A stretch of DNA of 58,028 bases from the NCBI GenBank assembly GCA_045636665.1, contig JAZTXY010000130.1:1-58028 (forward strand). The letters run 5' to 3'. Made by a program: the position numbers. Below are positions 42,001 through 45,000 of the stretch, one piece after another; the stretch's first letter is position 1; each line of letters begins with the position of its first letter. This DNA comes from Eubacteriales bacterium. Lineage in GTDB: Bacteria; Bacillota; Clostridia; Oscillospirales; CAG-382.

Positions 42001-45000
42001 GTTTCGACATCCTTACCGAGGAATCGGTTCGCAAGATGAAGGAGGCAGGATGCTATACCATCGATATGGGTCTTGAAAGCGGCGATCAGGAAATGCGCTT
42101 TAAGTATCTTAAGCGCTATATGACCGACGAAATGATAATCAACTGCAGTAAATGGTTCCACAAGCACGGTATCGCTCAGCTCACCTATAACATAATCGGT
42201 CTTCCTTATGAGGATAAATACCGCGCGCTTAAAACAATCAAGCTTAACGCAAAGGCAGGCGCCGACCGCGTTATCCCCAACATCTTTTACCCCTACCCCG
42301 GCACAAAGCTTTACGATATCGCAAAGGAAGGCGGCTTTATTCCCGAGGGCGGTGTTTCGCCCGATGCGCGCGTACCGCTCGTTCAGCCGCAATTCCCCGA
42401 ACACGAGGTATTGTATTTGCAGGCATATTTCTCTCACTTCGTAAGAAGATACAAATGGGCTTACGCAATGCCCAAATGGCTCGGAAAGCCTTATGAAAAA
42501 TGGCTCGACCACCGCGCAACGGGTAAGCACGTGCCCTATAAGCTTTTGGTCAAGCTTCACGACGGCTATGCAAAGGTACGCAACGGACTTAAAAACTTCC
42601 TTGTCGACCATCTCCCCAAGGTTTATATGAAGCTCCGTATGCTTAAGCACCGCAAGAAAGCAAAGAATAAATAATTATGGCAGGAACACTTTATATCGTA
42701 CCTACCCCTATCGGAAATATGGGTGATATGACACCGCGCGCAAAAGAGGTTTTGGAAAGCGTCGATTTCGTCGCGAGCGAGGATACGCGCGTCGGCGGTA
42801 AGCTTTTGATGCTTTTGGAAATCAAAAAGCCGCTTGTCAGCTATCACGAGCATACGTCAAAAAGCGCAACCGATTCGATAATCGAGCGCATCCAAAACGG
42901 CGAAAGCTGTGCGCTTATTACCGATGCGGGCACTCCCGCGGTGAGCGATCCCGGTGAAAAGCTTGTCAACGCCTGCGCAAGCGCGGGAATTGAAATTACG
43001 GCTCTGCCCGGCGCCTGCGCGGCAATAACGGCGATTTCGGCTTCGGGATTGCCGTCAAGACGCTTTTGCTTCGAGGGATTTCTTCCCGAAAACAAGCGCG
43101 AAAGACGTGAAAGACTCGAAGAGCTCTCACGCGAGAAGCGAACCTTTATCCTTTATATCTCGCCGCACGATATCGATTCCTATCTGCCCGAATTGGCAAA
43201 TGCGCTCACAAGCCGCAAATGCGTTCTCGCAAAGGAATTGACCAAAATTCACGAGCGCTATTTCCGCGGCACCGCCGAAGAAATAGCCGCAAAATTCCAA
43301 ACCCTCTCGCCGTCCGAAAAGAAGGGCGAATTCGTTATGATATGTGAGGGAATGAGCGAGGAAGATGCTTTTTGGAAGGAAATGACCGTAAAAGAGCACG
43401 TTGACCACTATATATCGCTCGGACTATCGAAAATGGATGCCTGCAAGGCTACCGCGCGCGACCGCGGTGTCGGCAAGGGCGAAATCTATAAGAGCATAAA
43501 CAACTGAAAGGACTGTTTTAATGAGATCTTTCGGGATCAGAATTTTAATAACTCTGCTTATCCTATGCCTTACCTTCCCGATATTTCCCGTTTACGCTCA
43601 AGGCGAAGCGGTGAATATTGCGCTGTCCTTTGACGGCGAAGCATACAAGGGCGGCGAAATCACCTTGCGCGTTGCCGTCGGCAAGCCGACCGATGCACTC
43701 GCAGGGCTTGAATTCACGCTTTCGTACGACAGCAAATACGTCAAGGCGAAAATTATCGAAAATAACGAAAACGAGCTTCAAATGGATGCGCTTATCGCTT
43801 CAATGCCAAGCGGCTGGGAACAGATAAGCAGTCACAAGGAGGGTATTTACACCTTCCGCTTTGCTATGCCCGACAACGGCAAGGATTTGCTTGACAGCGC
43901 CGATGAGCTTGTTTTGGAAATCCCCTTTACGGTACAAGCCGCCGGCTCGTTTGATTTTGCGATTTCAAGCGAGGATATTATTGCCGTTGCAAACGATAAG
44001 GAAAGCACGGCTCTTTCGGGCAGCGGAAGTGAAATTTCGGTTGTCGCATCGAGCGAGGCACAAAAGATAGGCATCGAATTCAAGGGAAGCGACACAGCCA
44101 ACGAAAAGGGCAAATACAACCTTGTGATCGAGGCATTAAACCTCGGCGACACAAGCGGTATTGCCGCGCTTGAATTTGACTTTACATACGATAAAAAGGT
44201 CTTTTCTCCCACTGTAATAACCAACGAAAACGAAGAAATGAACGTCTTTATGCAGGATATGCCCGGCGATTGGGAGCAAATGTGCTCGTTTGACGAGGTA
44301 AAGGGCAAATATACTCTGCGCTTCGCCGCGAAAAATGCCGAATCGTTAACCGATGCCGACGTTTTGAAATCGGGCGAAAAAATGGTTATTTCGGTGCCCT
44401 TTAAGGTTATTGGAAGCGAGGGCGAAATCGCTTCGTTTATGGTCGAATCGGCATCTGTCATCGGCATAAACTGTGCAAACGGTATCCTTTCGGGAAGCGG
44501 AAGCGTTAAATCGGTTTCTATCGAAAAACCGCCGATAGGAACGATTCCCGACGATTCGGGATATATTATAAAAGACGGATTTTTGATGTACGTCAACGAA
44601 AAAACGGCGGTGTCGGATTTTCTTGCGCCCTTAGGAGAAGGCTTTACGGTAAATTCAAAGGGTGACAGAATCTGCACGGGCGATATTCTTACAAACGGAA
44701 ACGGAACCGACCTTGAAATCATCGTGCTCGGCGACGTTAACGGCTCGGGCGATATCGAAAAATACGATTATATTCTCGTTAAGCGTTGCTGTATGAACAC
44801 AATTTCGTTTAACGAGGCTCAACTTCTTGCCGCGGACATAAACCGCAACGGAAGCGTTGATAAATACGATTATATTCTCGCAAAACGCCACTGTATGGGC
44901 ACTTTTACAATAAAGGCGGATGAACAATGACAAGAAAAATAATTGCCGTTTTATTTGCGGCTGTAATGCTTTTTTCGCTTTGCGCTTGTACAGAGCAGTA

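Follow-up and report, generated by a model that had tools for sequence, protein, structure and literature searches.

Cohesin-dockerin systems have mostly been seen as cellulose or starch machines. The type I dockerin repeat consists of a calcium loop of 12 residues, with D, N, or S at positions 1, 3, 5, 9, and 12, followed by a helix. An adaptor scaffoldin is a secreted protein that has at least one cohesin and a dockerin, this dockerin differing in specificity from those recognized by its cohesins; ScaA/ScaB of A. cellulolyticus and the X-Doc end of C. thermocellum CipA are examples from complex cellulosomes. ScaE of R. flavefaciens is attached covalently to the wall by sortase. C. perfringens carries non-cellulosomal cohesins on the enzymes themselves, linking secreted toxins and glycosidases pairwise; 2vo8, 2jh2, and 2w1n are solved structures of such cohesins. 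In other Firmicutes, SLH, LysM, or choline-binding modules are used to place autolysins.

Non-cellulolytic systems with single cohesins anchored by transmembrane (TM) helices have already been published (PMC11557425, 2024; bioRxiv 10.64898/2026.02.05.704116, a 2026 preprint). According to the consulted part of the first article, the presumed non-cellulolytic Lachnoclostridium sp. MSJ-17 has four cohesin proteins, including two TM-anchored single cohesins and one scaffoldin with two cohesins and a dockerin, together with 39 dockerin proteins (PMC11557425). For Ruminococcus difficilis, the preprint describes a pair of anchoring scaffoldins that end in C-terminal TM helices, along with numerous dockerin proteins other than plant-fibre GHs (bioRxiv 10.64898/2026.02.05.704116). 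In R. flavefaciens FD-1, dockerins occur on transglutaminase-like and LRR proteins, on peptidases, and on numerous domains whose function is unknown, and the authors suggest, in the section seen, that some of these proteins may structure the cell surface (PMC2930009). Our literature search, like that of a preliminary description of this DNA, found no paper joining CAG-382 and dockerin.

The window analyzed here is a stretch of 58,028 nucleotides, contig C130 of an uncultured CAG-382 genome that is 80.5% complete and comprises 139 contigs with about 1.8 Mb assembled. Positions 43521..44930 of its forward strand encode a secreted scaffoldin-type protein of 469 amino acids with two cohesins and a dockerin, arranged as SP-Coh1-Coh2-X-Doc. 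The ORF list, Pfam, the sequence at the start site, and the AlphaFold2 model (mean pLDDT of 88.6) agree on this architecture, whose signal peptide, two cohesins, and C-terminal dockerin had been recognized in the preliminary description. The start lies 13 nt 3' of the rsmI stop codon, and AGGA is present 11 nt 5' of the ATG. Inspection of the translation placed the signal peptide (43521..43598, +) at residues 1-26, with likely cleavage between VYA and QG. Helix 2-21 of the model falls within this region, and the N-terminal hydrophobic segment is kept across an alignment of 47 sequences. A search of sequencing reads with positions 42600-45400 yielded no RNA run among the 20 listed, which shared 0.06-0.11 of the sampled words.

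Cohesin module 1 (43605..44054, +; residues 29-178, with a Pfam Cohesin stretch at 40-167) and cohesin module 2 (44058..44531, +; residues 180-337) together gave a Pfam Cohesin score of 40.1 bits in two stretches (cut-off of 24.1). In the six-frame search with PF00963, module 2 was found weakly, at 44148-44420 with 16.4 bits. The two modules share 38.6% identity over 88 residues, within the range of 36-39% reported earlier. Structure comparison with VIA, the cohesin fold being a nine-stranded jelly-roll beta-sandwich, gave a consistent picture. All of the top 43 entries matching the scaffoldin model were cohesins; module 1 superimposed on 6kgf_A, a C. acetobutylicum cohesin, with a Z score of 15.9 (rmsd of 2.1 over 135 residues), and module 2 on the C. 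perfringens cohesin 2vo8 with a Z score of 15.7 (rmsd of 2.0 over 135 residues). Both this fold and the association of the organism with the gut recall the non-cellulosomal cohesins of C. perfringens; the difference is that here the cohesins reside on dedicated scaffoldins and membrane anchors.

The cohesins are followed by a small beta module, termed X-like (44544..44726, +; residues 342-402), with strands at 349-402 in the model and no match to any Pfam family. An HMM of this module also matched three other dockerin proteins (CotH, DUF4127, and glucosaminidase), in each case immediately before the dockerin. It precedes only 4 of the 28 dockerins of the genome. The dockerin itself (44727..44918, +; residues 403-466) scored 40.6 bits with Pfam Dockerin_1 over residues 403-456 (cut-off of 22.9). 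It consists of two repeats, DVNGSGDIEKYD and DINRNGSVDKYD, each continuing into a helix that ends in KR (helices 414-424 and 448-458 in the model), and both repeats show the calcium loop plus helix of type I. Among solved dockerins, the best sequence match in the PDB was 8x39_A (9.9e-15), and 2ccl_B also matched (3.3e-9). The best Foldseek match of the whole scaffoldin was 3l8q (3.5e-14), the cohesin dyad from ScaA, an adaptor of A. cellulolyticus, and the tandem cohesins and the C-terminal dockerin after a small module are likewise features of the adaptors of complex cellulosomes. In contrast to those systems, CBM3, cellulase cargo, and an SLH-bearing anchor are missing here, and Pfam assigned no CBM family to this scaffoldin or to the second one described below. 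In the scaffoldin of MSJ-17, the dockerin is N-terminal according to the part of the article consulted, whereas the scaffoldin described here has it at the C-terminus, after the X-like module.

In the genome, four proteins were found to carry cohesins, with six modules in all. The six-frame PF00963 matches and E-values given in the preliminary description were reproduced exactly: C123:24133-24456 (4.1e-8), C130:43638-44021 (6.8e-7), C104:5699-6079 and 6254-6649 (40.7 bits together), and C66:4141-4434 (1.6e-4, under the cut-off). Two weak matches were added, the one in module 2 mentioned above and C14:34721-35059 with 14.8 bits; the latter lies in an S8 protease and was rejected, as a lineage-specific cohesin HMM had no match there. 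When 6594 frames were searched with this HMM, C130, C104, and C123 were found with E <= 6e-30 and C66 with E 0.0035, and the next match had 0.38. The protein encoded at C104:5549-7306 is, as previously proposed, a second scaffoldin with two cohesins and a dockerin (Pfam Cohesin, 36.7 bits), and its gene follows two cargo genes in a cluster. MSJ-17 has one such scaffoldin in the text consulted, compared with two here.

The two remaining proteins, C123:24010-24687 and C66:3802-4548, each have a signal peptide, a single cohesin, and a C-terminal hydrophobic stretch with a basic tail (KKKK or KSKRG). The earlier assignment of both as single cohesins with a C-terminal TM helix was borne out, signal peptides and TM helices having been assigned by inspection and models. 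A whole-protein hmmscan had left the C123 protein without any Pfam family, but this proved to be a filter artefact; its ectodomain alone gave 34.4 bits with Pfam Cohesin, aligned with the scaffoldin family with an hhalign probability of 97.2%, and was 36-43% identical to the C104 cohesins. The C66 cohesin is more divergent. Its ectodomain scored 23.2 bits, just under the cut-off of 24.1, in line with the sub-threshold match noted before, so that three of the four cohesin proteins exceed the Pfam cut-off. Its similarity to the scaffoldin family is weak (hhalign probability of 4.7%), as are the BLASTP matches to C123 and C104 (E of 0.01 and 0.056). The model of the C66 protein (pLDDT of 83.7; C-terminal helix at residues 216-246) superimposed on 6kgd_A with a Z score of 12.7 (rmsd of 2.9 over 138 residues), and all of the top 38 entries were cohesins, unrelated sandwiches following at a Z score of about 10. 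The Pfam score, the match of the lineage-specific HMM, and the predicted fold together identify C66 as a cohesin. All 17 aligned C66-type proteins from the genus share the order signal peptide, cohesin, linker, TM segment, and basic tail. The cohesins of the genome fall into three classes. By described architecture, the system resembles that of MSJ-17, which also has four cohesin proteins, two of them with a C-terminal TM helix, and dozens of dockerins; in the same way, the C123 and C66 proteins correspond to the TM-anchored single-cohesin scaffoldins of MSJ-17 and R. difficilis, as far as these are described in the parts consulted.

The dockerin PF00404 matched 29 times in the genome at E<=0.01, 28 of these matches being over the cut-off and two being fragments at contig edges; a lineage-specific dockerin HMM found 28 frames (>=80 aa) among 6594. 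The large dockerin set described before is therefore real, but the count of 27 proteins is replaced by 26 cargo proteins plus the two scaffoldins, with the two contig-edge fragments in addition. Pfam recovered every cargo family named earlier (DUF4855, GHL10, SGNH, S8, transglutaminase-like, Amidase_3, CHAP, CotH, purple acid phosphatase, and LRR) and added NAGPA, glucosaminidase, DUF4127, polysaccharide deacetylase, PPC, SH3_3, Flg_new, and F5/8 type C. DUF4855, GHL10, NAGPA, and DUF4127 cargo are putative glycosidases, and the remainder includes esterases, proteases, a kinase, a phosphatase, lectin and LRR adhesins, and peptidoglycan hydrolases.

The absence of a recognized cellulase was also upheld. 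GH5 (PF00150) and GH9 (PF00759) had no match in the 80.5%-complete genome, and Pfam placed no cellulase or amylase family on the 28 dockerin proteins scanned. GH48 (PF02011) had no match in the genome either, a result that is uninformative because the control genomes also had none. The features of a cellulosome were not seen: the dockerin proteins carry no cellulases, the scaffoldins no CBM, and the cohesin proteins no SLH and no LPXTG-like motif. Pfam assigned neither GH13 nor CBM26 to any of the 28 dockerin proteins. This separates the system from the amylosome-type systems of R. difficilis (bioRxiv 10.64898/2026.02.05.704116) and R. bromii (PMC4611034), which have dockerin-borne GH13 amylases and CBM26 and are similar in being cohesin-dockerin systems of gut Firmicutes not directed at cellulose. 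The consulted description of MSJ-17 includes one dockerin-borne lignocellulose GH, whereas none was found here, and it makes no mention of peptidoglycan-hydrolase-type cargo or of a family-wide distribution (PMC11557425). Transglutaminase-like, LRR, and peptidase dockerin proteins are shared with R. flavefaciens FD-1; there, as far as the consulted section goes, about 100 plant-cell-wall enzymes outnumber them and a sortase does the anchoring, whereas here non-CAZyme cargo makes up the whole system. As the genome is incomplete, it may have additional scaffoldins, anchors, or glycoside hydrolases that the assembly lacks.

Alignment of the dockerin repeats revealed a K-[YF] recognition pair and a KR pattern in both scaffoldin dockerins and in 18 of the 26 cargo dockerins. 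A second class without the lysine comprises the dockerins of five wall-active or wall-binding proteins (CHAP, Amidase_3, glucosaminidase-SH3, the polysaccharide deacetylase, and an SH3_3 protein) and of an S8 protease; that wall-active enzymes have a dockerin subclass of their own is new here. The recognition positions differ between genomes, being K-Y/F in this one (G000), Q-T/A-T in relative G009, and T-A/S-T in relative G011, as co-evolution of binding partners would lead one to expect. Within the genome, the scaffoldin dockerin shares 54-65% identity with cargo dockerins. The window protein was earlier called an adaptor. Its combination of cohesins and a dockerin in a secreted protein agrees with that name; a separate dockerin specificity is not apparent from the recognition pair, its dockerin belonging to the same K-[YF] class as most of the cargo. 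The common K-[YF]/KR pattern means that the sequences give no sign that the scaffoldin dockerins use a different cohesin than the cargo, and in this respect, too, the protein departs from the adaptors of complex cellulosomes, its dockerin not being visibly of another type than those of the cargo.

TM tails are a general mode of surface anchoring in this genome. Crude filtering for ORFs that end in a hydrophobic stretch and a basic tail retrieved 40, about 25 of which have, by eye, a signal-peptide-like N-terminus and an acidic linker; no LPXTG-like motif common to these ~25 secreted proteins was seen. GHL10 and DUF4855 are present both in TM-tailed and in dockerin versions encoded by neighboring genes; that the same enzyme families carry either a dockerin or a TM tail is new here. 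The TM-tailed neighbors of dockerin genes were considered as hidden cohesins. This was rejected, as the cohesin HMM matched none of them and Pfam identified GHL10, DUF4855, Metallophos, and F5/8 type C. A profile search found no SLH in the genome.

We consider it probable that the window protein is the secreted scaffoldin of a cohesin-dockerin surface-display system unrelated to cellulose, docking cargo onto membrane-tethered cohesins, and we infer the binding partners from the module classes. The K-[YF] dockerins of the cargo would bind, in a calcium-dependent manner, to the cohesins of both scaffoldins and to the C123 membrane cohesin, and the X-Doc end of the scaffoldin would dock into another cohesin, most likely a membrane-tethered one. 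In this way, a single membrane anchor would hold a pair of cargo proteins rather than one. The result would be an exchangeable, membrane-tethered coat of enzymes and adhesins, paralleling the ~25 proteins that bear such a TM tail directly. The hierarchy from adaptor to anchor that this would entail is unproven. A predicted complex of the C123 cohesin (residues 26-175) and the scaffoldin dockerin (396-469) reached at best 0.27 against a mark of 0.32, in a run without controls, and counts neither for nor against binding. A network without hierarchy, in which every K-[YF] dockerin, those of the scaffoldins included, binds the same set of cohesins and random chaining leads to branched or partly cell-free assemblies, would explain why K-Y or K-F plus K-R recurs in both repeats of the scaffoldin dockerins as in the cargo, why these dockerins are so similar in sequence, and why the C123 membrane cohesin belongs to the same class as the C104 scaffoldin cohesins, with 32-36% identity. 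We regard such a network as rather unlikely, since the three distinct cohesin classes suggest more than one specificity, the X-like module is restricted to a few dockerins, and in G011 and G009 the dockerin of the scaffoldin ortholog is set apart from most cargo. It falls there into a subclass whose second calcium loop is degenerate, and it ranks low by Pfam score (29.5 bits and 20th of 22 in G011, 23.4 bits and 28th of 31 in G009). We think it improbable that the two dockerin classes reflect a still broader role, with cohesin-dockerin pairing as the general cell-surface organizer of the family and at least two specificity classes; the K-[YF] class would load nutrient enzymes and adhesins on the scaffoldins, and the lysine-less class would dock wall-active proteins and the S8 protease on a cohesin close to the membrane, for example the divergent one of C66. 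If true, the cell would position its own autolysins by cohesin-dockerin pairing, in place of SLH, LysM, or choline-binding modules.

Membrane tethering, as assumed in the surface-display reading, was weighed against cleavage of the C-terminal hydrophobic segment and basic tail as a sorting signal, with sortase-type linkage of the anchors to the wall as for ScaE of R. flavefaciens. LPXTG-like motifs before the TM segment are absent from the C123 and C66 proteins on inspection (the sequences there are EDGNGW and SEDLYMY), NCBIfam LPXTG_anchor did not match either protein at E<=1, and no sorting-signal family was assigned to the TM tails. The other TM-tailed proteins share only acidic linkers, and the 17 aligned C66-type proteins show no conservation in the sequence that precedes the TM segment. 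The genome does encode one sortase (C91:9901-10407, 42.8 bits), and many cohesin proteins of other genus members end in P-x-G-D-[AG]-x, followed by the TM segment and an R/K tail; one of these proteins weakly matches LPXTG_anchor (11.5 bits, cut-off of 15.9). The P-x-G-D-[AG] motif looks like a sorting signal, so that simple membrane insertion is not certain lineage-wide, but for the anchors of this genome wall linkage appears quite improbable. The most far-reaching alternative is that the modules are not paired at all, the dockerins acting as calcium-stabilized folding or wall-binding modules and the cohesin folds binding glycans or host proteins. Interaction in this lineage is deduced rather than observed, the cohesin fold is common (leukocidins and adhesins reach Z scores of 9.5-11 against these models), and only 6 cohesin modules are available for 28 dockerins. 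Such a disproportion is, however, usual in cellulosomes according to the part of Rincon et al. consulted. Cohesin and dockerin are joined in one polypeptide twice in this genome and also across the genus, C104 has a cluster of cargo genes with a scaffoldin gene, and Pfam Cohesin exceeds its cut-off on all cohesin proteins except C66; unpaired modules are hence hard to believe in.

The surface-display reading adds a well-documented example of a known architecture from an uncultured gut lineage with a small genome, in which cohesin-dockerin pairing would serve as a general surface-display device. The case is made useful by its range of cargo, including peptidoglycan hydrolases and CotH kinase, and surface location would be a functional clue for the DUF4855, GHL10, and DUF4127 families of unknown function. 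The system, with its three classes of cohesin and at least two of dockerin, is small enough for 6 x 28 binding assays to cover it fully. Should the classes turn out to be orthogonal, they would provide new cohesin-dockerin pairs for synthetic scaffolds.

The scaffoldin had been described as an orphan without relatives. This does not hold, as 85 near-full-length relatives were found, each with at least 86% query coverage, and 24 of 41 genus genomes contain a full-length match. Cohesins as such are nearly genus-wide, with matches in 38 of 40 other genomes (29 of 30 in the preliminary description), and their occurrence throughout the family, in 67 of 81 genomes and all 15 genera sampled, is a new finding. 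C66-type matches are present in 16 of the 24 scaffoldin-bearing genomes versus 11 of the 17 that lack it, many of these genomes being incomplete; over the 41 genomes of the genus, the scaffoldin and the C66-type anchor are found together no more often than by chance. Close orthologs of the C123 anchor (E <= 1e-80) occur in only 4 of 40 other genomes. Both distributions were counted against our reading. In two relatives, G021 and G020, the positional ortholog of the scaffoldin is 1.6 kb from a C66-type TM cohesin. The nearest public relatives of the lineage are metagenome-assembled genomes titled as water-buffalo cecum and rectum.

The position of the scaffoldin gene after rsmI is kept in 9 of 9 loci examined, and the order rSAM-rsmI-scaffoldin-lipoprotein-yitT-fkbM in 7 of 7. 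Downstream, an ORF of 148 amino acids (44927..45373, +) starts with an ATG that overlaps the stop codon of the scaffoldin gene (ATGA). The product has a lipobox-like N-terminus (LFSLCAC) and matches no Pfam family. It may be part of the cohesin-dockerin system. It directly follows the scaffoldin gene in all seven syntenic loci, with 54-92% identity.

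The scaffoldin gene of contig C130 is an open reading frame of 469 codons without interruption at 43521-44930 (+). The stop codon of an rsmI-like methyltransferase gene lies 13 nt 5' of its start, and AGGA is found 11 nt before the ATG. Pfam searches revealed a cohesin match of 40.1 bits in two stretches of the protein (best at residues 40-167) and a Dockerin_1 match of 40.6 bits at residues 403-456, both well above the cut-off. An AlphaFold2 model with 47 relatives as input (mean pLDDT 88.6) consisted of an N-terminal helix (residues 2-21), two beta-sandwiches (Coh1, residues 29-178; Coh2, residues 180-337), a small beta module termed X (residues ~342-402), and three C-terminal helices. 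The top Foldseek match of this model was the adaptor cohesin dyad of Acetivibrio cellulolyticus ScaA (3l8q, E 3.5e-14). The first 43 VIA entries were cohesins throughout, with 6kgf_A matching sandwich 1 (Z 15.9, rmsd 2.1, 135 residues) and 2vo8 matching sandwich 2 (Z 15.7, rmsd 2.0, 135 residues). Coh1 and Coh2 were 38.6% identical over the 88 residues compared. The dockerin sequence matched the solved dockerins 8x39_A (9.9e-15) and 2ccl_B (3.3e-9), and its two calcium loops, DVNGSGDIEKYD and DINRNGSVDKYD, are canonical. The preliminary description had assigned a signal peptide, two cohesins, and a dockerin to the protein; Pfam, the model, and the fold matches bore out this layout, with module X inserted ahead of the dockerin.

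The source assembly (G000) comprises 1.82 Mb in 139 contigs, one of which (C130) makes up the window, and is 80.5% complete. The earlier list of six-frame PF00963 matches was reproduced exactly when the search was repeated. A cohesin HMM built from the lineage and run with filters off on all 6594 frames of at least 80 aa detected only four proteins, encoded on C130, C104, and C123 (E <= 6e-30) and on C66 (E 0.0035); the next-best frame had an E value of 0.38. C104:5549-7306 encodes a second protein with signal peptide, two cohesins, spacer, and dockerin, which aligned over its whole length with the C130 scaffoldin family (hhalign probability 99.7%). The proteins encoded at C123:24010-24687 (P0001, 225 aa) and C66:3802-4548 (248 aa) share one layout: behind the signal peptide, a single domain of cohesin size is connected by a linker to a ~20-residue hydrophobic stretch, which is followed by a KKKK or KSKRG tail. 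The C123 ectodomain alone scored 34.4 bits against Pfam Cohesin, and hmmscan of the whole protein against Pfam yielded no family, even at E<=1. The missed match is a filter artefact; true domain matches can be lost to HMMER filters when a protein carries a hydrophobic signal peptide together with a C-terminal transmembrane (TM) tail. The C66 ectodomain reached 23.2 bits, slightly below the cut-off. Its model (pLDDT 83.7), which ends in a helix at residues 216-246, matched solved cohesins with Z 12.7, and the first 38 entries were cohesins throughout. Sequence comparison divided the six cohesin modules into three classes: Coh1 and Coh2 of C130; Coh1 and Coh2 of C104 (54% mutual identity) together with C123 (32-36% to both); and the divergent C66 module alone.

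PF00404 matched 29 times in the genome, with 28 matches above the cut-off and two representing contig-edge fragments. A lineage dockerin HMM returned 28 frames of at least 80 aa, including a DUF4127 protein (C3) and a polysaccharide deacetylase (C123:6591-7751) that fell below the Pfam cut-off. As judged by Pfam, the cargo comprises putative glycan-active enzymes (two DUF4855 proteins, GHL10, NAGPA, and DUF4127), two SGNH esterases (one with MucBP and F5/8 type C), proteases and related proteins (transglutaminase-like, PPC, and a TM-tailed S8 protein of 1810 aa), a CotH kinase, a purple acid phosphatase, wall-active or wall-binding proteins (Amidase_3, CHAP, glucosaminidase-SH3, the polysaccharide deacetylase, and an SH3_3 protein), and adhesin-like proteins (an LRR_5 protein of 2104 aa, Flg_new, and two F5/8-type-C proteins). 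Five cargo proteins had no Pfam family. GH5, GH9, and SLH were not found in this 80.5% complete genome; GH48 was not found either, but the same search matched no control genome. A single sortase gene is present. The S8 protease (C14:30341-35773) contains cadherin-like domains and a divergent internal dockerin (residues 1389-1441) immediately followed by a weak cohesin-like match (14.8 bits); its C terminus is formed by a TM helix of its own and the tail RRKKVK.

TM tails were sought with a crude filter for ORF ends bearing a hydrophobic stretch and a basic tail, and secretion was judged by eye. The scan retrieved 40 ORFs, ~25 of which encode secreted proteins whose acidic linker leads into a TM segment and a tail of the KKKK type; inspection by eye revealed no common LPXTG-like motif among the latter. 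Judged from sequence, the TM tail looks like the organism's general means of surface retention. The same enzyme families occur in TM and dockerin versions, often adjoining, as seen for GHL10-TM followed by GHL10-dockerin (C13:3022-7702), and DUF4855-F5/8C-TM adjoining DUF4855-dockerin (C135:1540-4859); in a third case, the gene after a TM-tailed DUF4855 enzyme encodes a different dockerin protein, PPC-dockerin (C87:7975-11760). This pairing supports the view that the dockerin ties proteins to the same surface by another, indirect route. A reservation about the TM anchoring comes from other species of the genus, which encode many cohesin proteins (loci L081, L082, L092, L096, L098, L099, L101, and L102) with a TM segment and an R/K tail behind a conserved P-x-G-D-[AG]-x. 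The P-x-G-D-[AG] motif in this position resembles a sorting signal; no NCBIfam model matched it significantly.

We consider it fairly probable that these components constitute a cohesin-dockerin display system tethered to the membrane, where the C130 scaffoldin would double an anchor's capacity, i.e. the number of cargo proteins per membrane anchor. The main rival is a non-hierarchical cohesin-dockerin network, to which we assign a rather low probability. The recognition positions of Clostridium thermocellum type I dockerins are 10-11 and 17-18 of each repeat. K-[YF] and K-R occupied both repeats in 20 of the 28 dockerins, both scaffoldins among them. Six had no position-10 lysine in either repeat (CHAP, Amidase_3, SH3_3 protein, glucosaminidase-SH3, polysaccharide deacetylase, and S8), and two had K-Y in the first repeat only (DUF4855-F5/8C and DUF4127). 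By these residues there are at least two dockerin classes, the minority class being located mainly on wall-active proteins. The adaptor-to-anchor hierarchy proposed earlier was not shown by sequence, since the scaffoldin dockerins resemble those of the cargo, as would also be expected of the network.

Three observations hint at the hierarchy. An X-like small beta module precedes only 4 of 28 dockerins (C130 scaffoldin, CotH, DUF4127, and glucosaminidase). In the near-complete relatives G011 and G009, the dockerin of the scaffoldin ortholog falls into a subclass whose second calcium loop is degenerate and is among the weakest Pfam dockerin matches of its own genome. A C66-type TM cohesin is encoded 1.6 kb away from the positional ortholog in both G021 and G020. 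Recognition residues also vary by species (K-Y/F in G000, Q-T/A-T in G009, T-A/S-T and others in G011), which fits co-evolving pairs. The C66-type cohesin of G021 (L201, G021:C4, 42-7331) and G020 (L202, G020:C6) is accompanied by an 1148-aa TM-tailed protein, and the scaffoldin ortholog 1.6 kb from this pair is rsmI-linked; the G000 counterpart of the pair (a 1172-aa Metallophos/Flg_new protein and the C66 cohesin) resides on a contig other than the scaffoldin's.

The C130 scaffoldin had been regarded as an orphan, a view that failed: 85 relatives covered at least 86% of it, with 36-79% identity and nearly all with 467-478 aa. A few are annotated as 'dockerin type I repeat-containing protein [Clostridia bacterium]'. 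Full-length matches were present in 24 of 41 genus genomes. The gene order radical-SAM, rsmI, scaffoldin, 148-aa lipoprotein, yitT, fkbM was identical at all seven syntenic loci. Identity across these loci was 51-81% for the scaffoldin, 78-96% for rsmI, and 94-99% for the radical-SAM gene; the scaffoldin evolves faster than either of the other two. The 27%-identical forms of G021 and G020 are likewise located immediately 3' of rsmI. Cohesin matches were obtained in 38 of 40 other genus genomes and, family-wide, in 67 of 81 genomes and 15 of 15 sampled genera. The nearest named records are metagenome-assembled genomes labeled 'Clostridia bacterium' (water-buffalo cecum and rectum) and 'Eubacteriales bacterium'. 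The start of the gene for the 148-aa lipobox protein (44927-45373, +) overlaps the scaffoldin stop (ATGA). This protein is encoded directly downstream of the scaffoldin in 7/7 syntenic loci (54-92% identity) and matched no Pfam family; it may be a scaffoldin partner or unrelated to it.

A literature search for CAG-382 together with dockerin found no paper. The 'presumably non-cellulolytic' Lachnoclostridium sp. MSJ-17 (2024) has up to 39 dockerin proteins and four cohesin proteins, including two single cohesins with C-terminal TM helices and a two-cohesin scaffoldin with dockerin, and single Coh2-TM proteins occur in two further species (PMC11557425). Ruminococcus difficilis has two TM-helix-anchored scaffoldins with starch-oriented cargo, and rumen isolates have additional TM-anchored single cohesins (bioRxiv 10.64898/2026.02.05.704116). 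The dockerin cargo of R. flavefaciens includes transglutaminase-like, LRR, peptidase, and unknown-function proteins, for which the authors speculated on a role in cell-surface structuring (PMC2930009). On these descriptions, this kind of system is already in print, and supplements may list more comparable genomes. The anatomy given in the preliminary description holds; its wiring of adaptor to anchor stays a proposal, the scaffoldin dockerins being cargo-like, and its novelty was overstated, given the comparable published systems. Beyond the published cases are the family-wide conservation, the pairing of a TM with a dockerin version within one enzyme family, and the separate dockerin class on wall-active enzymes.

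Elsewhere in the window, positions 1-8000 have a low GC content (0.35-0.37 vs 0.42-0.50 in the remainder) and encode a tyrosine integrase (1361-2569), two HTH_17 proteins (885-1373 and 2573-3124), and a ThsB-like TIR protein (3956-4678). This region is probably an integrated mobile element with part of a Thoeris-like defence system. A 2353-aa protein encoded at 8754-15815 (-) combines GT2, glucoamylase-like, and GH94 domains, an architecture resembling that of cyclic beta-1,2-glucan synthase.
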